Positions 5,185 to 63,233 of a stretch of 64,000 nt of DNA are shown piece by piece. The notes beneath the pieces were generated by a model. The model was not told the origin of the DNA, did no database searches, and was given only the letters and a program-made list of their open reading frames with translations. The stretch lies in assembly GCA_041663425.1 (NCBI GenBank), contig JBAYMS010000001.1:8884-72883 (forward strand), written 5' to 3'. This DNA is from Candidatus Omnitrophota bacterium (GTDB lineage Bacteria > Omnitrophota > Gorgyraeia > 2-01-FULL-45-10). The position numbers and the translations under genes were made by a program. Each line of letters begins with the position of its first letter. Within the stretch, counting starts at the first letter, position 1.

Positions 5185-5423
5185 ATTAAATAAAAAAATC
5201 CCCGCCTGTGCCGTGTGAACTTAATAATTTTGATCCCGATTCTCATCAGGTGGGAGCCCTCGAACAAACGCCAAAGCGTTTAACCAGTTAGGCCCCCGAT
5301 TCTAAATTATTGGGTCAAAATTTCTAATTCAATCACGCGCACCGCAGGGATATTTCTATTCCTAAATAAAGTATATCATACGATTACCGCAAAGGCAAAT
5401 TACGCCCGGGCGGTGCGATGGTT

Positions 5424-50654: not shown

Positions 50655-52148
50655 ATGAATCAGGAACGAAAAAATATATTTTTCCTGCCTATTATTTCAA
50701 TAATCATTTTAGGGGCTATTTGTTATGCCGGCTCTCTGAATGGGAAATTTATACTGGATGATGAGCTTCTGGTAAAAGAGAACGCGCTCATAGCGAACAG
50801 GGCAGGTCCTGGTACATTTCTTTCTACCAATATCATGGCAGGGGCCGGCATGGTCTCCGCTTTTTACCGTCCATTGCAGATGATCACCTATGCGCTGGAT
50901 CATGCCATATGGGATCTTAATCCGTTCGGATATCATATTACTAATATATTTATTCATATTCTTACCGCACTATGCATATATTGGCTGATCAATATTTTAT
51001 ATAATGATAATAAATTATCCTTTTTAACCGCCGCATTATTCGTGGTTCATCCGATGCATACCGAAGCCGTAAGCTATATCTCTGGCAGGGCAGATCCTCT
51101 TTCCGCATTATCTATGCTTCTATGCGCGATAATATATATAAAACAAGTGAAGCTGGGCAGGGCAGGTGTTTCGGGCTGCGCACTGCTCATATTAACTTAT
51201 GTTTTAGCGCTTCTTTCGAAAGAGATGAGTGTGGTGCTGCCGCTACTGCTCCTTCTTTATCATTTTGTTTTCAAAAAGAAGGTGCGTTGGCCGGCATTTG
51301 TGTCTTTACTGAGCGTCCTGGCTGTCTATCTGTTAGTCAGGTTCACTTATCTTAGAGATATATCTTTTCCGACGAATATTGGGATCGATACGATGCTTAA
51401 CAGGATTCCCGGATTCTTCGCCGCAATACTGAATTATATAAAGCTTTTATTTGTGCCGATCCCGCTTCATATGGAATACGGGGCCAGACTGTTCCGATTT
51501 GCGGACCCAATAGTAGTTTCCGGCATGGTAGTAGTTTTTAATATACTCGTTTTTGCCTATACGAAAAGAAACAACAAGGTAGTCCTATTTTCAATAGGCT
51601 GGTTTTTTCTGGCCTTGCTTCCGTCGGCTAATTTATACAAAGTAAACGCATACATGGCGGAACATTTTCTTTATCTGCCTTCCATAGGATTTTTCCTGTT
51701 GGCAGCCTATGTTTTAACAAATATTTATAATAATAAAAGGTATAAAATTATCGGACTTGCGCTGATGGTGACTGCTATCTTATTTTATTCGGTCCTTACG
51801 ATAAAACAAAACGAATACTGGAGAGACCCTATAACATTTTACACAAGGACCATAGAATTTGCCCCACCCAGTGCGAACATTTATTATGGCCGTGGAATAA
51901 TTTATGATAAAAAAGGTGACTATGATAAAGCCATATCAGATTACACCATGGCTATTAAAATAAAACCTGACTATACGGATGCATACAATAATAGGGGTAT
52001 CGTCCACAGTAAAATGGGCAATTATGAACAAGCCATATCAGATTATGCTATGGCTATAAAGATAGATCCGGACTATATTCCCGCCCAGAAAAATCTTATA
52101 AAAGCACGTAAAGATAGCGGCAGGATTGCAGAGGGCCATAGCAGATGA
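50655..52148 (+). CDS. TMTC-like polytopic GT-C-fold protein with a C-terminal TPR domain (paralog of 60284-61870)
   Basis: The N-terminal TM region with FILDDELLVKEN aligns with SFQLDDHIVIIDN of the paralog. The C-terminus carries TPRs (YYGRGIIYDKKGDYDKAISDY..., YNNRGIVHSKMGNYEQAISDY). The likely start is MNQERK at 50655. Confidence 0.55.
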   Translation: MNQERKNIFFLPIISIIILGAICYAGSLNGKFILDDELLVKENALIANRAGPGTFLSTNIMAGAGMVSAFYRPLQMITYALDHAIWDLNPFGYHITNIFIHILTALCIYWLINILYNDNKLSFLTAALFVVHPMHTEAVSYISGRADPLSALSMLLCAIIYIKQVKLGRAGVSGCALLILTYVLALLSKEMSVVLPLLLLLYHFVFKKKVRWPAFVSLLSVLAVYLLVRFTYLRDISFPTNIGIDTMLNRIPGFFAAILNYIKLLFVPIPLHMEYGARLFRFADPIVVSGMVVVFNILVFAYTKRNNKVVLFSIGWFFLALLPSANLYKVNAYMAEHFLYLPSIGFFLLAAYVLTNIYNNKRYKIIGLALMVTAILFYSVLTIKQNEYWRDPITFYTRTIEFAPPSANIYYGRGIIYDKKGDYDKAISDYTMAIKIKPDYTDAYNNRGIVHSKMGNYEQAISDYAMAIKIDPDYIPAQKNLIKARKDSGRIAEGHSR

Positions 52149-53068
52149 AGCATCTTAATAAGATAGCCGGTTATTTTACGGAATATATGGTGGCATGGGT
52201 GGTTGTCGCCGTAGTGCTGGCATATATATTTCCATCTGCATTCATTCCTCTCAAACCTTATATAGACTGGCTATTTGCCTGCACCATGTTCGGCATAGGT
52301 GCGCTCCTTTCGGTAAAAGATTTCGAGCCAATAGTTAAAAAACCCAGGCTTGTTCTTTTAGGCATTCTGGCGCAATTTGCCATCATGCCGTTTGCAGCTT
52401 TTGTGATCGTGCGCATATTAAATCTTCCTCCCGCGATAGCATTCGGACTCATACTTGCCGGAGCGGTTCCCGACGCTATGGCCGCAGGTGTGATGTCTTA
52501 TATAGCGGAGGCGGATGTCGCGTTATCGGTAGCGCTTACTACAGGGACGACGTTAATCTCGCCATTGGTTACACCCGCGCTCATGTATATATTTGCCAGG
52601 GAATATATTCCGGTCCAGTTTTTCCCGATGTTCAAAAGCATAATGTTCATGGTTATTGTCCCGCTTTTCTTAGGACTTATGGTGCGGTATCGTTTCCAGA
52701 GGCATGTAGAAATGATACGTCCGGTATTTCCGGCCTTATCCACAATATTTATAGCGTTCATCTGCGGACTGGTAGTCGCGCTTAACAGAGATGCACTAGG
52801 TCAGATCACGGCGATAGTATTTTTTGCGGTCGTGCTTCTTAATCTGGCAGGATTGGTGTTGGGATATGGTGCGGGTCTGCTATTTAAATTTAACAAAAAA
52901 CAATGCCGCACTCTCGCCATAGGAGTGGGGATGCAGAATGCCGGTCTCGGCGCTGTTCTCGCGATAAAGTATGCCTCGCCCGAAGCTGCTATACCAAACG
53001 CGCTTTTCGCAACGTGGTGCATCGTCAGCGCGGCCATACTTGCCGGTGTGTGGAGCAGGAACGTATGA
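52145..53068 (+). CDS. Bile acid:sodium symporter (BASS) family transporter
   Basis: It is about 300 aa and has the GVGMQNAGLGAVLA motif. Confidence 0.7.
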   Translation: MKHLNKIAGYFTEYMVAWVVVAVVLAYIFPSAFIPLKPYIDWLFACTMFGIGALLSVKDFEPIVKKPRLVLLGILAQFAIMPFAAFVIVRILNLPPAIAFGLILAGAVPDAMAAGVMSYIAEADVALSVALTTGTTLISPLVTPALMYIFAREYIPVQFFPMFKSIMFMVIVPLFLGLMVRYRFQRHVEMIRPVFPALSTIFIAFICGLVVALNRDALGQITAIVFFAVVLLNLAGLVLGYGAGLLFKFNKKQCRTLAIGVGMQNAGLGAVLAIKYASPEAAIPNALFATWCIVSAAILAGVWSRNV

Positions 53069-55046: not shown

Positions 55047-55133
55047 GCACTTAGCTAACTGTGTGGCTGAATAAACTTGGCTGATGTCAGAGACATCAGC
55101 ACTTAGTCAGCAGCGTGGCTGAATAAACTTGGA
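55047..55133 (+). repeat. Two tandem copies (B1, B2) of the leader motif, separated by a perfect hairpin
   Basis: B1 is CACTTAGCTAACTGTGTGGCTGAATAAACTTGG (55047-55079). The hairpin is CTGATGTC-AGA-GACATCAG (55080-55098). B2 is CACTTAGTCAGCAGCGTGGCTGAATAAACTTGGAG (55099-55133). A third copy lies at 37089-37122. Confidence 0.5.
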
Positions 55134-55143
55134 GGGATTGGAT

Positions 55144-55716
55144 ATGTTAAAACAAATACTAAAATGTAAGGTAACGACGGCTCTTTGTTTGGCGCTGGTT
55201 TTATGCTCTCAGGAAGCATTTGCCAGAGGGGGAGGCGGGCCCGGACCTGAGCCGCGGCATCGCGGAGATTATTATTATCGCGGAGATCAGTTGTATAGGC
55301 ATGGATGGCTAGGGTTTGATATTGCTGTTGCGGCGCTGACTATAGGCGCAATAGTAGATTCTCTTCCGCCAAGGTATAACACGGTTGTGGTCGGAGGGGT
55401 GCCGTACTACTATTATGGGAATGCCTACTATAGGCCATGTCCGGGCGGTTACGTTGTTGTTCCGCCGCCTATTGCAACTCAACCCATTATAGTAGCGTCT
55501 GAAGCGGTCCAGCCGGTTACCGTGGTTACTCCGGTGGTCGCTGCTCAAACTCAGGCCCAGACCGCTGAAACGGTGACAATCAATATCCCCAGTTCAAAAG
55601 GCGGGTATAAAGCGATATCGCTCAAAAAATCAGGCAACGGGTTTATCGGGCCTCAGGGCGAGTATTATTATGAGCATCCCACAGTTGAGCAGTTAAAAAC
55701 ATTGTATGGAAGTTAA
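55144..55716 (+). CDS. Secreted Tyr/Gly-rich protein of unknown function
   Basis: It has a signal peptide, then RGDYYYRGDQLYRHGW ... GVPYYYYGNAYYRPCPGGYVVVPPP. The ATG at 55144 is preceded by a GGAGG that lies inside repeat B2. Confidence 0.45.
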   Translation: MLKQILKCKVTTALCLALVLCSQEAFARGGGGPGPEPRHRGDYYYRGDQLYRHGWLGFDIAVAALTIGAIVDSLPPRYNTVVVGGVPYYYYGNAYYRPCPGGYVVVPPPIATQPIIVASEAVQPVTVVTPVVAAQTQAQTAETVTINIPSSKGGYKAISLKKSGNGFIGPQGEYYYEHPTVEQLKTLYGS

Positions 55717-55742
55717 AAACAGAAATAAAAAAGGAGGGCACC

Positions 55743-56288
55743 ATGAAGTATATTATGGGTATTCTGATAGTGTTGTGTTGTGCGGTAGCGATGGTATCGT
55801 CGAGCGTATTTGCCAACGAGTGTCCTATGGGTAAAGACGGGGTTGGGCCCCAGTATGGGAAAATGGCCCGTGGTATGGACAAGGACAACATCTTTTTTTA
55901 TAAAGCGCATTTCGTTATGGAAAATGCGGCCGAGCTGGGTTTAAGTAACGAACAGATAGAAAAAATAAAAACGCTTAAATACGGCATCGAAAAAAATAGC
56001 ATAAAGAAAGATGCAGATATAATGATCCTTGCCCTTGATATTAAAGAGGCGCTTGGCAAAGACGAGACAGATATTAATGCTGTAAATGCTCTCATAGACC
56101 AGAAATATGCGCTGAAAGCTCAGAAGGCGAAAGAAGAGATGGATGCATGCGTAAGCCTTAAGAAGATCCTGACTCCTGAGCAGCTCAAAAAAATGAAAGA
56201 GATGCATCGGAAAGGCCCTAAGGGATGGGGCAAAGGCCCTGATGCGGCAAAAGTGCCTATGGCTGAAATGGAAGAGCGCGGCGAATAA
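55743..56288 (+). CDS. Periplasmic LTXXQ-motif protein (Spy/CpxP/ZraP-like)
   Basis: It has a signal peptide, a helical K/E-rich body and LTPEQLKKMKEM. Confidence 0.55.
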   Translation: MKYIMGILIVLCCAVAMVSSSVFANECPMGKDGVGPQYGKMARGMDKDNIFFYKAHFVMENAAELGLSNEQIEKIKTLKYGIEKNSIKKDADIMILALDIKEALGKDETDINAVNALIDQKYALKAQKAKEEMDACVSLKKILTPEQLKKMKEMHRKGPKGWGKGPDAAKVPMAEMEERGE

Positions 56289-56306: not shown

Positions 56307-56339
56307 GGGGCCGGGCAAAACGCCCGGCCCTTTTTGTTT
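56307..56339 (+). terminator. Intrinsic terminator
   Basis: GGGGCCGGGC-AAAAC-GCCCGGCCC is followed by TTTTTGTTT. Confidence 0.75.
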
Positions 56340-56386
56340 ATGACAGCTAAAAATACTTGCATAGTCGCAAAGATGTGATATAATTA

Positions 56387-56406
56387 TTATGAACATATGT
56401 TCATAA
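56387..56406. promoter_or_regulatory. Perfect 20-bp palindrome TTATGAACATATGTTCATAA (candidate operator), overlapping a promoter upstream of the DUF134/ars cluster
   Basis: The palindrome is exact. A possible -35 TTGCAT (56357-56362) and an extended -10 TGATATAAT (56373-56381) lie just upstream. Confidence 0.55.
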
Positions 56407-56414
56407 TAGAGGAT

Positions 56415-56723
56415 ATGATGAGACCGAAAAAAACGAGATGGATAAAGTGCCTGCCCGGCGAAAGATGTTTTAAACCGATGTGCAAACCTTTAAACAAAGT
56501 TAAATGTGTTTGTCTGACCCTGGACGAGTTTGAGGCTGTTAGGTTGGCCGACCTGGAAGGTATGGAACAGGCTGAGGCTGCCAAAATGCTTAAAATATCA
56601 AGACCGACATTCTCGAGGATAGCGGCTTCCGCCCGCAAAAAAATCGCTGACGGACTGGTAAATATCAAAGCTATCAGGATAGAAGGCGGCTGCTGCAAAG
56701 TCGTAAGGAGAAAAATAAGATGA
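56415..56723 (+). CDS. DUF134 (UPF0251) family DNA-binding protein
   Basis: It has the MMRPKKTRWIKCLP... N-terminus typical of DUF134, a Cys-rich region and a sigma-70 region-4-like HTH (EAAKMLKISRPTFSRI). Confidence 0.6.
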   Translation: MMRPKKTRWIKCLPGERCFKPMCKPLNKVKCVCLTLDEFEAVRLADLEGMEQAEAAKMLKISRPTFSRIAASARKKIADGLVNIKAIRIEGGCCKVVRRKIR

Positions 56724-58024
56724 AAGATTTGAAGAAATTCTGGTGGCTCGTAGGTATATTCATAGTGATGTACTTTCTGCCGCTGGGTAACCCCAAGGTA
56801 TCGAACGCCATCTTTGAGGCGTTTAAGCTTCTTCAATGGTATGTCATTAACCATACACTAGCCTGTGTTGTTCCAGCCATGTTCATAGCAGGGGCTATAT
56901 CGACGTTTTTGTCGCAGGCCTCAGTAATGAGATATCTCGGACCGGATGCGAATCGACCACTAGCTTATACGGTAGCGTCTGTCTCAGGGATTATCCTCGC
57001 GGTATGCTCATGCAGTGTGCTTCCGATGTTTGCGGGTATTTATACTATGGGAGCAGGTCTTGGGCCCGCAAGCGCTTTTCTTTATTCAGGCCCGGCGATA
57101 AATGTTATGGCTGTATTTCTTTCTGCGCGCGTTCTAGGGTTTGATATAGGACTGGCCAGGGCTATTGGTGCGATCGGTTTTGCCTTTATCATAGGTCTTT
57201 CTATGGCATTTATATTTAGGAAGTCGGAGCACGTGCGTAATAAAGCCGCTATGGCTCTGCCGCCAGCCCCGAAACCTACCAGACAACTCTGGAAGACAGG
57301 TCTTTACTTCTTCTGTATGATAATGTTCCTTGTCTTTAGCGATTGGTATAACACTAACGACGTCACTCTTAATTTGAAAACCGGCACTACAATGAAAGCA
57401 AGCATACAATACTCAACACAGGATTTCATCGAAGTAAAAGAATATAAGGCCGACGGGATGATAGCTATAGATGCTGTGCGCCTTGACCGTAAAGATATTG
57501 CTAAAATAACCCCGGAAGATAATTTCGTAATGAGGGTACACGCTATTAAGTGGTACCTTGCCGGTCTTATGTTGTTAGCTATCCTGATCATGCTAAAAAA
57601 ATGGTTTACTCGTGCTGAGATAAAAGAGTGGATGACTGCAACCTGGGATTTTGGGATGATGATCGTTCCTCTTCTTTTTGGAGGCGTATTTGTAACAGGA
57701 TTTATCGGCGGAATTATGCCGGAGAAGGCAGTGGCTACTTTTGTGGGAGGCAACGGATTCTTCTCAAACCTTGTTGCGTCTGTCATAGGCTCACTCTGGT
57801 ATTTTGCGACGCTAACCGAGATACCGATCACCGAAATGCTGATGCGTCTGGGGATGGGCAAAGGACCTGCGCTTGCGCTTCTTCTGGCTGGCCCGGCATT
57901 GTCGCTCCCGAGCATTTTAGTCATTAACAAAATATTAAAGTGGCGGAAAACACTTATATTCTGTTTGCTTGTAGTTGGATTTTCTACTATCGTGGGATAT
58001 ATCTTTGGAATGATAGCACATTAA
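56720..58024 (+). CDS. Two-domain permease (COG0701/DUF318), ArsP-like organoarsenical efflux permease candidate
   Basis: It has the membrane CSCS motif (AVCSCSVLPMF), like ArsP TPFcSCS. It sits in a cluster with arsM and thioredoxin-like genes. Confidence 0.5.
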   Translation: MKDLKKFWWLVGIFIVMYFLPLGNPKVSNAIFEAFKLLQWYVINHTLACVVPAMFIAGAISTFLSQASVMRYLGPDANRPLAYTVASVSGIILAVCSCSVLPMFAGIYTMGAGLGPASAFLYSGPAINVMAVFLSARVLGFDIGLARAIGAIGFAFIIGLSMAFIFRKSEHVRNKAAMALPPAPKPTRQLWKTGLYFFCMIMFLVFSDWYNTNDVTLNLKTGTTMKASIQYSTQDFIEVKEYKADGMIAIDAVRLDRKDIAKITPEDNFVMRVHAIKWYLAGLMLLAILIMLKKWFTRAEIKEWMTATWDFGMMIVPLLFGGVFVTGFIGGIMPEKAVATFVGGNGFFSNLVASVIGSLWYFATLTEIPITEMLMRLGMGKGPALALLLAGPALSLPSILVINKILKWRKTLIFCLLVVGFSTIVGYIFGMIAH

Positions 58025-58067
58025 ATATCAGTATCTGTATGTAATAATCTTTGCAAGTATCTACTAA

Positions 58068-58313
58068 ATGGAGGAGAGGATGAAAATTGAAATATTAGGA
58101 GTTGGTTGCCCGAAATGCAAACAGCTTACCGCCAATGCTGAAGCAGCGGTGCAAGAGTTAAATATTCAGGCCGAAATCGGTAAAGTCACCGATATTGTCA
58201 AAATTACAGAATATGGGATCATGATGACTCCGGCATTAGCGATCGATGGTACTGTTGTATCTGTGGGTAAGGTATTAAGTAAAGATGAGATCAAAAAGAT
58301 TATATCAAAATAA
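58068..58313 (+). CDS. Small thioredoxin-fold protein (redox-active disulfide protein 2 type)
   Basis: It is 81 aa and reads MKIEILGVGCPKCKQL, with a CPKC active site. Confidence 0.7.
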   Translation: MEERMKIEILGVGCPKCKQLTANAEAAVQELNIQAEIGKVTDIVKITEYGIMMTPALAIDGTVVSVGKVLSKDEIKKIISK

Positions 58314-58329
58314 ATACAGGGGAGGGTAA

Positions 58330-58767
58330 GTGAAAAAAATATTTCCAGTTCTTCTGGCGGTTGCCGTGCTAATTAGTAGCGGCCTAATTATTTCTTTGCC
58401 GGCCCAAGCAGAAGATAATGCCAAAAGCGCGCAAGTTGTTGCTTATTATTTTCACGGAGATATGCGTTGTCCCACTTGCCATAAGCTGGAGCAATATTCT
58501 AAAGAAGCGGTGGAGACTAACTTTAAGGATGCGGTTGCATCCGGAAAATTAGACTTTAAAGTTATCAATGTAGAAGATAAAGGCAACGAACACTATGCTA
58601 GCGATTACCAGCTTTACACCAAATCGCTTATTTTGTCTTTAGTTAAAGACGGTAAGGAAATAAAATGGAAGAATATGGATAAGATATGGGAGTATGTACA
58701 TAATAAAGAGAAATTTATTGATTATGTAAAGAGCGGGGTTGCCGATTTATTAAAGGAAACCAAATGA
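58330..58767 (+). CDS. Secreted thioredoxin-like CxxC protein
   Basis: It has a signal peptide, then VVAYYFHGDMRCPTCHKLE. Confidence 0.45.
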   Translation: MKKIFPVLLAVAVLISSGLIISLPAQAEDNAKSAQVVAYYFHGDMRCPTCHKLEQYSKEAVETNFKDAVASGKLDFKVINVEDKGNEHYASDYQLYTKSLILSLVKDGKEIKWKNMDKIWEYVHNKEKFIDYVKSGVADLLKETK

Positions 58768-59444
58768 CAGAGATGCTTATAGCTTTTGCGTCAGCATTAT
58801 GGCTAGGTATATTAACTTCAATAAGCCCGTGCCCTTTGGCTAGCAATGTAGCCGCTATTTCTTTTTTATCTAAAAAGATAACACATCCAGCGCTTGTGTT
58901 TATTTCAGGCCTTGCCTACATGTTTGGTAGAATGGTATCTTATGCGATCTTGGGATGGATTATTATTAGTTCCCTTATAAGTGTCCCTCAAGTCGCCCAG
59001 TTCTTACAGAAATACATGGGGAAGGCTTTGGGGCTCATTCTGATTCTTGTCGGCCTCGTCCTGCTTGAGGTGCTAACGCTTCGTTTGCCCGGGTTGTCGT
59101 TGTCGCAAAAACATCACAAAAGAATAGCAGAGTCCGGCGCTCCGGGGGCCTTTTTGCTTGGCTTTATCTTTGCCCTTTCTTTTTGTCCTATTTCCGCCGC
59201 ATTATTTTTCGGAAGCCTTATACCTCTTGCGGTAGATAGTAAAATAGGCCTGGCCCTGCCATTTGTATATGGAATAGGAACAGGCCTTCCTGTATTTATT
59301 TTTGCTCTGGGTATTGCGCTGGGGGTTGCATCCTTAAGTCATTGGTTTAAGAAGCTGATAGCGATCGAAATATATGCCAGGAAAATCACAGGGGTGGTTT
59401 TTATTGCTGTGGGGTTGTATTATATTTTAAGATACATAGTATAA
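58764..59444 (+). CDS. CcdA/DsbD-type transmembrane electron transporter
   Basis: It has six TM helices with LGILTSISPCPLAS and a second conserved Cys region. Confidence 0.6.
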   Translation: MTEMLIAFASALWLGILTSISPCPLASNVAAISFLSKKITHPALVFISGLAYMFGRMVSYAILGWIIISSLISVPQVAQFLQKYMGKALGLILILVGLVLLEVLTLRLPGLSLSQKHHKRIAESGAPGAFLLGFIFALSFCPISAALFFGSLIPLAVDSKIGLALPFVYGIGTGLPVFIFALGIALGVASLSHWFKKLIAIEIYARKITGVVFIAVGLYYILRYIV

Positions 59445-59451
59445 AGATAAT

Positions 59452-60282
59452 GTGAGGACATACATGAAAAATATAAAAAGCAAGGTTAGAGAAGGATACG
59501 CGAAGATCGCCAAAACAAACGGTTCATGCTGCGGCGGAAGCCCATGCTGTTCCGGGGCAAATCCGGCCGAGACTATAAGCAAGAATGTAGGATATAAAGA
59601 CGAGGATATGAAAAATGTGCCTGAAGGTGCAAACCTGGGGCTTGGCTGCGGTAACCCAATCGCTCTGGCATCTTTAAAGGCCGGTGAAGCCGTACTTGAC
59701 TTAGGGTCCGGTGCAGGCTTTGACGCGTTTCTGGCAGCTAAAAAAGTCGGAAAAGATGGCCGGGTGATAGGAGTAGACATGACGCCCGAGATGGTCGAGA
59801 AAGCGCGCGGCAATGCAGATAAGGGCGGATATAAAAATGTAGAGTTCCGCTTAGGAGAGATCGAAAGCCTGCCCGTCGCAGACGCCTGCGTCGATGTCAT
59901 AATATCGAACTGTGTTATTAATCTCTCGCCCGATAAGCAAAAAGTATTTCAGGAGGCTATGAGGGTTTTAAAGAATGGCGGAAGGCTTATGGTTTCTGAT
60001 CTGGTGCTTCGCAAAGAGCTGCCCGGGGTAATAAAAAAGTCGGTCGAAGCTTATGTAGGCTGCATTTCAGGAGCCGTTCTGAAAAAAGAGTATCTGGAAT
60101 ATATAAAAAATGCCGGTTTTGAAAATATTGACGTGGTTGGTGAGACATCATTTCCTATGGACGATATGGCTCACGATATAACCGCAAAAGCGATCAAAGA
60201 TAACATCGACTTAACTCCGGACGATATTAAAGCACTGGAAGGGTCAGTGGTCAGCATAAAAGTATCCGCTATAAAAAAATAA
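59452..60282 (+). CDS. arsM: Arsenite S-adenosylmethionine methyltransferase
   Basis: It has the SAM-binding motif VLDLGSGAGFD. The conserved Cys regions CCGG (N-terminal), SNCVINLS and GCISGA match ArsM catalytic cysteines. Confidence 0.7.
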   Translation: MRTYMKNIKSKVREGYAKIAKTNGSCCGGSPCCSGANPAETISKNVGYKDEDMKNVPEGANLGLGCGNPIALASLKAGEAVLDLGSGAGFDAFLAAKKVGKDGRVIGVDMTPEMVEKARGNADKGGYKNVEFRLGEIESLPVADACVDVIISNCVINLSPDKQKVFQEAMRVLKNGGRLMVSDLVLRKELPGVIKKSVEAYVGCISGAVLKKEYLEYIKNAGFENIDVVGETSFPMDDMAHDITAKAIKDNIDLTPDDIKALEGSVVSIKVSAIKK

Positions 60283-61871: not shown

Positions 61872-63233
61872 TTATTTTGGCAGGAAAGTTTTTACCTTGC
61901 TGAGCAGCTTCTCAGGAGCATATGGCTTCTGGATAAAGTCATCCGCGCCCATGTCGCGCACCTTCTTCTCAAGATCGTCTTCGACATTGCCGGTGGAAAT
62001 GATCACCGGAATATTGCGCGTAGCATCAATCTGACGGAGATTTTTCAGCACAAAATAGTCATCTACCCCAGGCAGGCTTAGATCGAGAATGATGAGAGAC
62101 GGATTTTCTGTCTGAGCGCTTTTCAGCCCTCCCGCAGCGTCGTTGTTTACCAAGGCTTCGTAACCATTCGCTATAACCATATTTGCGAGCGCGGAAGCAA
62201 AATTTTTGTCATCTTCTATTATAAGTATCTTGTTATTATTTGTATGCACGTGTCTCTCCTTTTGCGCCAACGGCGCTAAAATAGTAAAGCAGTTTGGTTT
62301 TCTAGGTCCGCTGGTTGCCCATACTCTGCCGTTATGAAGCTCTATTATATCTTTTGCTATTGCCAACCCGAGGCCGTGGCCTTCCACGGAAGCATCGAGG
62401 CGTTCAAATTTATCAAATATCTTCTCCAGCATATTTTCAGCTATGGGAGTTCCTGTATTCAAGAATTCCATCCGCGCAAAGCCAGGTTCGGGCAGCATCC
62501 GGATAATGACTTTGCCTCCGGGGGGAGTATATTTTATAGAATTATTCAAGAGGTTGTTGATTGCGCGAACCATCTTTTCCCGGTCAGCGTGGACGGCAAG
62601 TTCTTTTTTAGAAGGCTCTATCAGCAACGTAATATTTTTTGAAACGGCTATGGCTTCAAGCTCGCGTTTCTGTTCGTCAACGATATCGCGCAGATCGAAT
62701 AAGCTTAAATTTAATTTAGCTATGCGTGCTTCATACTTGTATGTGTCGATCAGCTCCATGATTATGGAGTTCATCCTGTCCGTAACGCTGTCGCAGCTCA
62801 AAATGCATTCTTTTTGTTTTGCCGTAAGGTCTCCGTGGTAGCCCGCCCTTAACCCTGCTATATCGGCTTTAATTGCGGACAGGGGGCTTTTGAGGTCGTG
62901 AGCAAGAGACATAGCAAATTTTGATTTTAACTCATCCGCTTTTTTTGCCCTCGTCGCATAACTAAGGATTTTATTAATTATCTCCTCGAGAACTTTATAG
63001 CCGATGGTATAACCGAGAAGAATTATAACGCCGGCCAGGATGCAGATCCGTGTGAGGTCGGCGACAGATGTCTCAGCAGTGAAATTATTACTATAAATTA
63101 TATAAATCAGGGTAAGGATAGGGATGATGCTTATCAGGAGAAATGCAAGGTTAAGCTGCCTGTAAGGATTTTCATTTAGTTCCTGCAGTAATAGCCGGAG
63201 CTTGCTGTCTTTTTTCATGATACAAGGATACAT
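61872..63233 (-). CDS. Hybrid sensor histidine kinase with a C-terminal receiver domain
   Basis: It has an N-terminal TM, HisKA (FAMSLAHDLKSPLSAI), HATPase (N, G1, G2 boxes) and a REC domain (ILIIEDD...LDLSLPG). Confidence 0.8.
   Translation of the reverse strand: MYPCIMKKDSKLRLLLQELNENPYRQLNLAFLLISIIPILTLIYIIYSNNFTAETSVADLTRICILAGVIILLGYTIGYKVLEEIINKILSYATRAKKADELKSKFAMSLAHDLKSPLSAIKADIAGLRAGYHGDLTAKQKECILSCDSVTDRMNSIIMELIDTYKYEARIAKLNLSLFDLRDIVDEQKRELEAIAVSKNITLLIEPSKKELAVHADREKMVRAINNLLNNSIKYTPPGGKVIIRMLPEPGFARMEFLNTGTPIAENMLEKIFDKFERLDASVEGHGLGLAIAKDIIELHNGRVWATSGPRKPNCFTILAPLAQKERHVHTNNNKILIIEDDKNFASALANMVIANGYEALVNNDAAGGLKSAQTENPSLIILDLSLPGVDDYFVLKNLRQIDATRNIPVIISTGNVEDDLEKKVRDMGADDFIQKPYAPEKLLSKVKTFLPK

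Follow-up and report, generated by a model that had tools for sequence, protein, structure and literature searches.

A DUF134 gene heads a six-gene arsenic operon

A stretch of 64,000 nucleotides from a Candidatus Omnitrophota bacterium (assembly GCA_041663425.1, contig JBAYMS010000001.1), which we refer to as the window, carries six co-directional open reading frames (ORFs) on the + strand between 56397/56415 and 60282, with 4-nt overlaps or short gaps between them. The first encodes a small DNA-binding-type protein of the DUF134/UPF0251 family, and the remaining five encode an ArsP_1 permease, ArsE, ArsF, ArsG and the methyltransferase ArsM (Table 1). An initial annotation, made from the sequence, had described these six genes, and its coordinates, gene order and gene descriptions all agreed with the ORF list and with Pfam and NCBIfam. 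The profile searches that it had proposed as a check gave passing scores for the small thioredoxin (TIGR00412) and for ArsM (NF008823) and matched the permease to Pfam ArsP_1. Judged by gene content and layout, the region is a genuine six-gene arsenic-resistance operon.

Table 1. Features of the operon and its borders in the window
Feature	Positions	Strand	Evidence and remarks
Intrinsic terminator of the upstream LTXXQ/Spy-like gene	56307..56331	+	10-bp stem with 9 G-C pairs, then TTTTTGTTT; 5' boundary of the unit
Sigma-70 type promoter	56357..56384	+	-35 TTGCAT at 56357-56362; 16-nt spacer; extended -10 TGaTATAAT at 56376-56384
Candidate operator	56387..56406	no strand	Perfect 20-bp palindrome, TTATGAACAT/ATGTTCATAA, over the expected transcription start
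Ribosome-binding site AGAGGA of the DUF134 gene	56408..56413	+	Sequence reading
DUF134/UPF0251 helix-turn-helix protein, 102 aa	56415..56723	+	PF02001, 80 bits
ArsP_1 permease, 434 aa, CSCS motif	56720..58024	+	PF03773, 245 bits; start overlaps the DUF134 stop by 4 nt
arsE, 81-aa MTH895-type thioredoxin-like protein, CPKC	58068..58313	+	TIGR00412, 105.8 bits (cut-off 62)
arsF, 145 aa, CPTC, GTG start, N-terminal signal-like segment	58330..58767	+	NF040494, 120.8 bits (cut-off 60)
arsG, CcdA/DsbD-type polytopic membrane protein	58764..59444	+	NF040495, 275 bits (cut-off 200)
arsM, 276 aa from GTG or 272 aa from ATG 59464	59452..60282	+	NF008823, 355 bits (cut-off 263)
Membrane protein with C-terminal TPR repeats, 528 aa	60284..61870	+	Starts 2 nt past the arsM stop

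The mechanical ORF of the DUF134 gene begins at an ATG at 56397 and encodes 108 aa. We place the start at 56415, as the initial annotation had done, because the operator palindrome encloses the earlier ATG, most homologues have 100-102 aa and a 100%-identical protein (P0001) has 102 aa. For arsE, the gene caller applied to the identical contig gives a start at 58080.

DUF134 orthologs (72-88% identity) were taken from 80 species-level genomes, and their loci were searched by tblastn with the window proteins. The genome scan combined the DUF134 alignment with clade-specific peptide patterns and hence covers the Omnitrophota clade, whereas the wider family context comes from representative proteins and from a scan for the palindrome described below. 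All 80 genomes belong to the Omnitrophota, although some records are labelled Planctomycetia, and the closest public proteins are labelled as metagenome-assembled genomes (MAGs) of Candidatus Omnitrophota. In every one of the 80 genomes the DUF134 gene comes first and is followed, on the same strand, by a combination of arsP, arsM, arsE, arsF, arsG, acr3 and an arsC-like gene. Because this DUF134-led cluster recurs in 80 species-level genomes with differing flanking genes, its composition is not a matter of chance.

The commonest order, found at 15 loci, is DUF134-arsP-arsM-arsE-arsF-arsG-acr3; the order in the window, with arsM last and no acr3, is rare among the related loci. Minimal forms consist of DUF134-acr3 (L038, L065), DUF134-acr3-arsC (L068, L080) or DUF134-arsM-acr3 (L053, L092), a layout in which DUF134 takes the place that ArsR has in the classical arsR-acr3-arsC operon. 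Both types of acr3 in the orthologous clusters pass the TIGR00832 equivalog model (407-460 bits, cut-off 283), and the arsC-like genes match the pI258 ArsC model best, with scores below its cut-off. Across 1.03 Mb of these Omnitrophota loci, an ArsR-like gene was found only at L051, where arsR (ELCVCE motif), arsD, arsA and a gene for a 238-aa membrane protein (L051:10788-13994) directly follow DUF134-arsP-arsM-arsE-arsF-arsG. In the 64-kb window, a tblastn search found no arsR and no second DUF134 gene.

A conserved palindrome overlaps the promoter

The candidate operator, TTATGAACATATGTTCATAA, occurs once in the window, where it starts 2 nt after the -10 box. It was present at the same position in 77/77 orthologous loci whose upstream sequence is long enough, 41 of which have an exact copy and 25, 9 and 2 of which have one, two and three mismatches, respectively. 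In these loci it lies 2-3 nt past the -10 box, and its distance to the start codon is mostly 13 nt (range 8-19). The palindrome is invariant in alignments whose flanks fall to 45% column identity, and in some operator variants, such as TTATGCACATATGTGCATAA and TTATGAGCATATGCTCATAA, two changes are placed symmetrically. Of 78 orthologous loci, 71 have a TTGACA element (at most 1 mismatch) whose first base lies 27-32 nt upstream of the operator, and 60 have a hexamer that agrees with TATAAT in at least 4 of its 6 bases and stops 2 nt short of the operator; the typical promoter of these loci reads TTGACA-17-TAnAAT. A dyad over the transcription start of such a near-consensus promoter is the classical arrangement for a repressor. 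The overall layout, with the regulator gene first (80 genomes) and a dyad overlapping the promoter (77/77 loci), is that of ArsR-controlled operons.

The operator co-varies with the DUF134 recognition helix

The recognition helix of the window protein is ISRPTFSRI. An operator variant with TGCACA goes together with a P64S change in this helix (ISRPTFSRI to ISRSTFSRI), which was found in 6 of 7 loci with the variant as opposed to 1 of 72 other loci (naive Fisher test, 1.7e-7) and in at least 3 separate lineages. Among these lineages is a protein only 57% identical to that of the window (P0122), whose gene heads arsP-arsE-arsF-arsG.

Two of the same Omnitrophota genomes (loci L064 and L079) also hold generic DUF134 paralogs, which adjoin Nitro_FeMo-Co genes and show the same promoter-operator-gene layout. 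Their operators, TTATTGGCATATGCCAATAA and TTATTAGCATATGCTAATAA (L064:1466-1485 and L079:11703-11722), have TGGCAT or TAGCAT half-sites, and their helix is VSRQTFGNI (Q64/G67/N68). Together, these paralog operators and helices suggest a simple recognition code for the whole family.

A metagenome scan for the exact 20-mer found at least 119 stretches with at least 120 sites. Among the 120 copies in the matches listed, 86 are followed within 40 nt by a DUF134-family gene: 59 of these precede an ars-type DUF134 gene, and 27 precede divergent DUF134 genes (36-63% identity), mostly without ars genes nearby. A further 8 of the sites listed have a DUF134 gene 41-400 nt away; the other 26 comprise 9 within a longer palindrome, 7 at contig ends and 10 remaining, several of which precede Nitro_FeMo-Co, DUF5320 or radical-SAM genes, the usual neighbours of DUF134. 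In a GC-rich organism, the gene for a generic DUF134 protein (P0127) in a Fer4/NifX/CbiA context is preceded by TTGACA-17-TATCCT-2-TTATGAACATATGCTCATAA-18-ATG. Since P0127 and the divergent DUF134 genes outside ars clusters carry it, the motif follows the DUF134 family and not ars genes. This distribution and the co-variation lend indirect support to a binding of the operator by the DUF134 protein.

Exact palindromes upstream of genes for Nitro_FeMo-Co (NifX-like) proteins, a DUF134-Nitro_FeMo-Co fusion, DUF5320 and radical-SAM proteins were seen at L115, L126, L136/L143, L165, L133, L118 and L116, the last of which has two adjacent palindromes, GGGCATATGCCC and GAACATATGTTC. At L109:2308-2327, a TTGACA promoter with the same palindrome precedes the gene for an HlyD-type membrane-fusion protein, which may be another target of a DUF134 regulator. 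We set aside the longer perfect palindrome GGTCAGT-TTATGAACATATGTTCATAA-ACTGACC as apparently unrelated. It recurs beside unrelated genes with no DUF134 gene nearby, on GC-richer contigs (L103, L104, L112, L150 with two sites, L155, L170, L186, L205 and L206), and may be a repeat element.

Ars-linked DUF134 proteins carry specific cysteines

The regulator matches PF02001 over residues 8-99 of the 108-aa ORF, above the gathering cut-off of 27 bits, and also weakly matches helix-turn-helix (HTH) models of the sigma-70 region 4 type. Profile searches gave no match to HTH_5 or HTH_20, the winged HTH models of ArsR/SmtB proteins. The family is large, with 3590 relatives among representative proteins clustered at 50% identity, and a PDB search with the window protein found no solved structure beyond a weak match to the N-terminal HTH of DeoR.

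C18, C23 and C93 do not vary in the alignment of the ars clade, and C12 and C94 hardly vary. At the columns of C18, C23, C93 and C94, 143 generic DUF134 representatives have Y/F, G (124/143), N/P and V/Y, respectively. A count of ars linkage covered distinct DUF134 proteins for which 1.2 kb or more of sequence past the gene was available; ars genes were found downstream in 97 of 98 proteins that have C18, C93 and C94, compared with 2 of 18 that lack this signature (97/1/2/16; naive Fisher test, 1.5e-16). In the ars-linked clade as a whole, C23 accompanies these three cysteines in most proteins. Generic DUF134/UPF0251/COG1342 proteins thus resemble the window protein in the PF02001 domain, in the promoter-operator-gene layout and often in an identical GAACATATGTTC core and SRPTFxRI helix; unlike the ars clade, they lack C18, C23, C93 and C94, are unlinked to ars genes and have Nitro_FeMo-Co, Fer4, CbiA-Fer4 or DUF5320 genes as neighbours. 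A vicinal cysteine pair with distal cysteines resembles some ArsR sites for trivalent arsenic (As(III)). C18, C23, C93 and C94 are therefore candidates for a trivalent-arsenical site of the ars clade.

ArsM and the ArsP_1 permease

The last gene of the operon encodes ArsM, as had been proposed. It scores far higher against NF008823 than against UbiE models (at most 64 bits), its best PDB matches are ArsM structures (5evj, CrArsM; 4fs8, CmArsM), and neither the profile scores nor the PDB matches group it with UbiE-like enzymes. C66, C154 and C204 align with C72, C174 and C224 of CmArsM, and an N-terminal CCx4CC (C26, C27, C32 and C33) offers candidates for the fourth position (CmArsM C44); the cysteines are kept in 31-32 of 32 orthologs. 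The window enzyme is thus like CmArsM and CrArsM in its S-adenosylmethionine (SAM) fold, family score and four cysteine positions, and unlike them in being a short form without the C-terminal domain.

In the permease, the pair C96-x-C98 and C49 are kept in 35 of 35 homologues, and the gene adjoins ars genes in most related loci. Its best NCBIfam matches, SaoE and SO_0444 (Cu/Zn efflux), are far below their cut-offs. Transport of methylarsenite (MAs(III)) or trivalent roxarsone (Rox(III)), and not of As(III), is known only for ArsP of Campylobacter jejuni (PMC6205960). The window permease is likened to it by family, through Pfam ArsP_1 and a Cys-x-Cys pair and not through direct alignment, and by this analogy its substrate would be trivalent, probably methylated, arsenic. 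The window permease has 434 aa, compared with 320-390 aa in most orthologs, and carries an insertion of ~100 aa (residues about 175-300) with an extra hydrophobic segment and a soluble stretch, which is common to six related loci (79-88% identity).

ArsE, ArsF and ArsG resemble a thiol relay

The initial annotation had read the three genes between the permease and ArsM as an embedded thiol-disulfide relay. Its identification of the individual proteins was sound, but it missed that they are the already named arsEFG module, as all three pass the NCBIfam cut-offs for TIGR00412 ('MTH895/ArsE family'), NF040494 ('nitrophenyl compound nitroreductase subunit ArsF') and NF040495 ('aromatic aminobenzylarsenical efflux permease ArsG'). 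The Prokaryotic Genome Annotation Pipeline (PGAP) likewise names an identical ArsF protein 'nitrophenyl compound nitroreductase subunit ArsF family protein'. These names go back to Shewanella putrefaciens 200, where Chen, Zhang and Rosen reportedly described in 2019 ArsE and ArsF as a nitroreductase that acts on roxarsone(III) and nitarsone(III), and ArsG as an efflux permease. Applied to the window, this role would make ArsE and ArsF a joint reductase for the nitro group of trivalent roxarsone or nitarsone, and ArsG the exporter of the resulting aromatic amino-arsenical; the cluster would be a detoxification system for synthetic aromatic arsenicals, with no thiol relay. The passing of models derived from the Shewanella proteins speaks for such a role and counts against a relay.

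The topology, folds and cysteines of the window proteins point to a relay. ArsE matches MTH895 (PDB 1ilo, E=1e-17), keeps C14 and C17 of its CPKC motif in 60/60 homologues and shows no hydrophobic segment in a hydropathy scan. ArsF has the fold of a thioredoxin and not of a flavin nitroreductase. Because a signal-like hydrophobic segment is present at the N terminus of ArsF in 55/55 homologues and absent from ArsE, the two proteins would lie on opposite sides of the membrane, an arrangement that argues against a joint cytoplasmic nitroreductase. ArsG matches PF13386 (DsbD_2) with 58.9 bits and PF02683 with 34.2 bits and has about six or seven hydrophobic segments in a simple hydropathy scan. 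Its sole two cysteines, C23 in transmembrane segment 1 (TM1; SPCPL) and C141 in TM4 (FCPIS), are the CcdA/DsbD pair and are kept in 51/51 homologues; the only PDB match is CcdA (5vkv), a weak one (E=0.006). In addition, the module occurs across sampled groundwater, lake and marine Omnitrophota, where synthetic nitroaromatic arsenicals are unlikely to have been a long-term selection.

These features are like those of pathways that run from thioredoxin through CcdA to ResA-, CcmG- or TlpA-type proteins: a CxxC donor in the cytoplasm, a membrane protein with some six segments and one cysteine each in TM1 and TM4, and an exported CxxC acceptor with a thioredoxin fold. The window differs from them in that its putative relay lies inside an ars operon, and the likeness of ArsG to CcdA is weak; no cytochrome c maturation genes were found near the window arsEFG. 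Most likely, ArsE, ArsG and ArsF pass reducing equivalents, in that order, from the cytoplasm to the periplasm. The published nitroreductase and efflux role fits the sequence features awkwardly, and we consider it unlikely here, though with a chance large enough to be taken seriously; our observations are no refutation of it. The relay of the initial annotation thus keeps its support from the placement of ArsE and ArsF, the CxxC motifs and the CcdA cysteines, while its genes belong to a named module to which another role has been assigned.

Related modules and regulators elsewhere

Counterparts of the effector genes occur in cultured Bacteroidota. The Fulvitalea axinellae plasmid pFA1 (NZ_AP025315) has the order ArsR - thioredoxin - ArsF - ArsG - permease, and a plasmid of Prevotella nigrescens F0103 (NZ_CP072340) has ArsR-like - ArsF - ArsG - thioredoxin - permease - ArsC - ACR3. 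Like the window, these clusters have a small regulator gene in front of genes for an MTH895-type thioredoxin, ArsF, ArsG (42% and 35% identity) and an ArsP_1 permease, and Fulvitalea ArsF shares the N-terminal signal-like segment of window ArsF. The Bacteroidota regulators in this position match HTH_5 and HTH_20 and are of the ArsR type, whereas the window has a DUF134 protein there, whose sigma-70-region-4-like HTH is unrelated and whose operator and cysteine positions are different. As the arsEFG and ArsP_1 module is already named and stands behind ArsR in Bacteroidota, the effector half of the operon is known biology.

For the regulator, the closest parallel is the MarR_ars subfamily (AdMarR_ars of Achromobacter), an experimentally validated ars repressor with a clade-specific Cys36/Cys37/Cys157 triad (bioRxiv 10.1101/2021.08.12.456183). 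Both MarR_ars and the ars clade of DUF134 are clades within general regulator families, stand at ars genes and have clade-specific cysteines, a vicinal pair among them. MarR_ars differs in family and fold and in its experimental proof, the DUF134 case being computational.

Genes flanking the operon

The upstream genes are set apart from the operon because the strong terminator at 56307-56331 separates them. Directly upstream, at 55129-56288, genes for a DUF6515 protein and an LTXXQ/Spy-like periplasmic protein end at this terminator. The ars cluster at L064 is preceded by genes for DUF6515, an extracytoplasmic function (ECF) sigma factor, a zf-HC2 anti-sigma factor, a Metal_resist/LTXXQ protein and a Gly-zipper protein. 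DUF6515/LTXXQ-type genes may form an envelope-stress module that tends to adjoin the ars cluster. In tblastn searches of the 80 related loci, in which DUF6515 was not a query, neither the LTXXQ gene nor the TPR gene appeared as a companion of the cluster. No terminator was predicted between arsM and the TPR membrane protein gene, which is possibly a co-transcribed passenger outside the conserved cluster; a hybrid histidine kinase/response regulator gene on the - strand (61872-63233) converges on it.

Elsewhere, the window encodes a 6S RNA (RF00013, 77.5 bits) at 5195-5353 on the - strand and six tRNA genes. We rejected the SBF-family transporter at 52145-53068 as an ACR3, since it resembles PanS/BASS transporters, though its 233.6 bits do not reach the PanS cut-off, and gave no TIGR00832 match and no tblastn match to Omnitrophota Acr3.

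Discussion

We think it probable that the promoter, operator and genes DUF134-arsP-arsE-arsF-arsG-arsM form one operon in which the DUF134 protein takes the role of ArsR, as an autoregulated repressor that is released by a trivalent arsenical. According to this model, without arsenic a DUF134 dimer would block RNA polymerase by sitting on TTATGAACATATGTTCATAA, which covers the expected transcription start and lies 2 nt past the -10 box. As(III) or methylarsenite would then bind the thiolates of C18 and C23 in the N-terminal tail and of C93-C94 in the C-terminal tail, and the arsenical-bound protein would leave the DNA so that the operon is expressed. ArsM would methylate As(III), and the ArsP_1 permease would export trivalent, probably methylated, arsenic. 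ArsE, ArsG and ArsF would bring reductant to the periplasm, either for arsenicals or for arsenical-damaged thiols there. The initial annotation had already placed DUF134 where ArsR is usually found, and synteny, the conserved operator, protein-DNA co-variation and the clade-specific cysteines now support that idea strongly.

Several points weigh against the model. All of the evidence is comparative genomics on MAGs. The statistics for the cysteine signature and for co-variation are naive and ignore shared ancestry, and the signature clade is nearly monophyletic, so that the count of ars linkage covers few evolutionary events. The AlphaFold2 (AF2) model is confident for the HTH core (residues 33-80) only; because the cysteine-bearing tails have predicted local distance difference test (pLDDT) values below 50, one joint cysteine site is unsupported by the model. 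ArsR is not absent from the phylum, as the arsR-arsD-arsA genes at L051 adjoin a DUF134 cluster. The canonical minimal ars set, acr3 or arsB with arsC, is found in many orthologous DUF134 clusters and not in the window, where tblastn detected no acr3, arsB or arsC; arsenite efflux would therefore rest here on the ArsP_1 permease, which passes no NCBIfam ArsP model. The role reported for the Shewanella ArsE, ArsF and ArsG is a further point of this kind.

A different possibility is that DUF134 regulates through the palindrome without sensing arsenic, its cysteines binding a structural or regulatory metal or an Fe-S cluster or responding to thiol or redox stress, and that any induction by arsenic is indirect. 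Generic DUF134 genes lie beside Fer4, Nitro_FeMo-Co and CbiA-Fer4 genes, neighbours that suggest a family-wide tie to metal or Fe-S cofactors, and many of the proteins have other N- or C-terminal cysteines; the poorly modelled tails also leave room for such a site. Yet the combination of C18, C93 and C94 is almost confined to ars-linked members, a vicinal pair with distal cysteines is the pattern of the ars-regulating MarR subfamily (bioRxiv 10.1101/2021.08.12.456183), and in some minimal operons the only effector gene is acr3, alone or together with arsC. These observations favour an arsenic-sensing DUF134 protein and make the alternative improbable.

The palindrome might also be an SOS box of the LexA type or the stem of an RNA hairpin in the 5' leader, and we rejected both on context as very improbable. 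The site resembles the Gram-positive LexA consensus CGAACATATGTTCG, and we take its core, GAACATATGTTC, to be the GAAC-N4-GTTC core of LexA sites. We dismiss this resemblance because none of the sites examined stands in front of an SOS gene such as lexA or recA, and 86 of the 120 sites listed immediately precede a DUF134 gene. Symmetric double substitutions would preserve an RNA stem as well as a DNA dyad, but a transcript starting ~7 nt past the -10 box would probably lack part of the left arm, and Rfam has nothing at the palindrome. Neither proposal accounts for operator changes that co-vary with the DUF134 recognition helix.

That the cluster is not about arsenic at all, with a permease from a family that includes Cu/Zn and other exporters and with a methyltransferase and thiol proteins serving other soft-metal or sulfur stress, draws on the SaoE and SO_0444 matches and on the lack of acr3, arsB and arsC in the window, but is scarcely credible given the bona fide ACR3 and ArsC-like genes of orthologous DUF134 clusters, an ArsM that passes its curated cut-off with all catalytic cysteines present, the arsR-arsD-arsA genes beside the L051 cluster and the ArsR, ArsC and ACR3 of the Bacteroidota versions.

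The operon type and its effectors are known; what appears to be new is the regulator family with its operator and its sensing signature. A full-text search, which left most subscription journals outside so that an earlier description is possible, found no paper tying DUF134/UPF0251/COG1342 to arsenic or to an operator. More tentatively, the observations might be joined into a single proposal, which we think could be right in full but more probably fails in some part. DUF134/UPF0251 proteins would be family-wide autoregulated repressors acting on TTAT-NNN-CATATG-NNN-ATAA, with residues 64/67/68 setting the triplet (P..SR for GAA, S..SR for GCA and Q..GN for TGG/TAG); the ars clade would have become an arsenic sensor via C18, C23 and C93-C94; and ArsEFG, in place of a nitroreductase with a pump, would be a relay from thioredoxin through a CcdA-like protein to a periplasmic thioredoxin and would act together with the ArsP_1 permease.

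Arsenic-responsive transcription has so far been ascribed almost entirely to ArsR/SmtB proteins, plus one recent MarR subfamily. If the model holds, the ars clade of DUF134 would be a further family of arsenic-responsive regulators beside ArsR/SmtB and MarR_ars, and As(III) sensing would again have evolved by the addition of a few cysteines to an available DNA-binding scaffold. The topology and cysteines of ArsE, ArsF and ArsG, in turn, cast doubt on a function that is being spread by annotation pipelines. The compact regulator-operator pair is a possible part for arsenic biosensors, and annotators would gain a rule for spotting ars regulation in a large uncultured phylum. For DUF134/UPF0251/COG1342, an uncharacterised family of thousands of sequence clusters, the 20-bp operator, the proposed recognition code and the candidate ligand provide a first concrete, testable handle.

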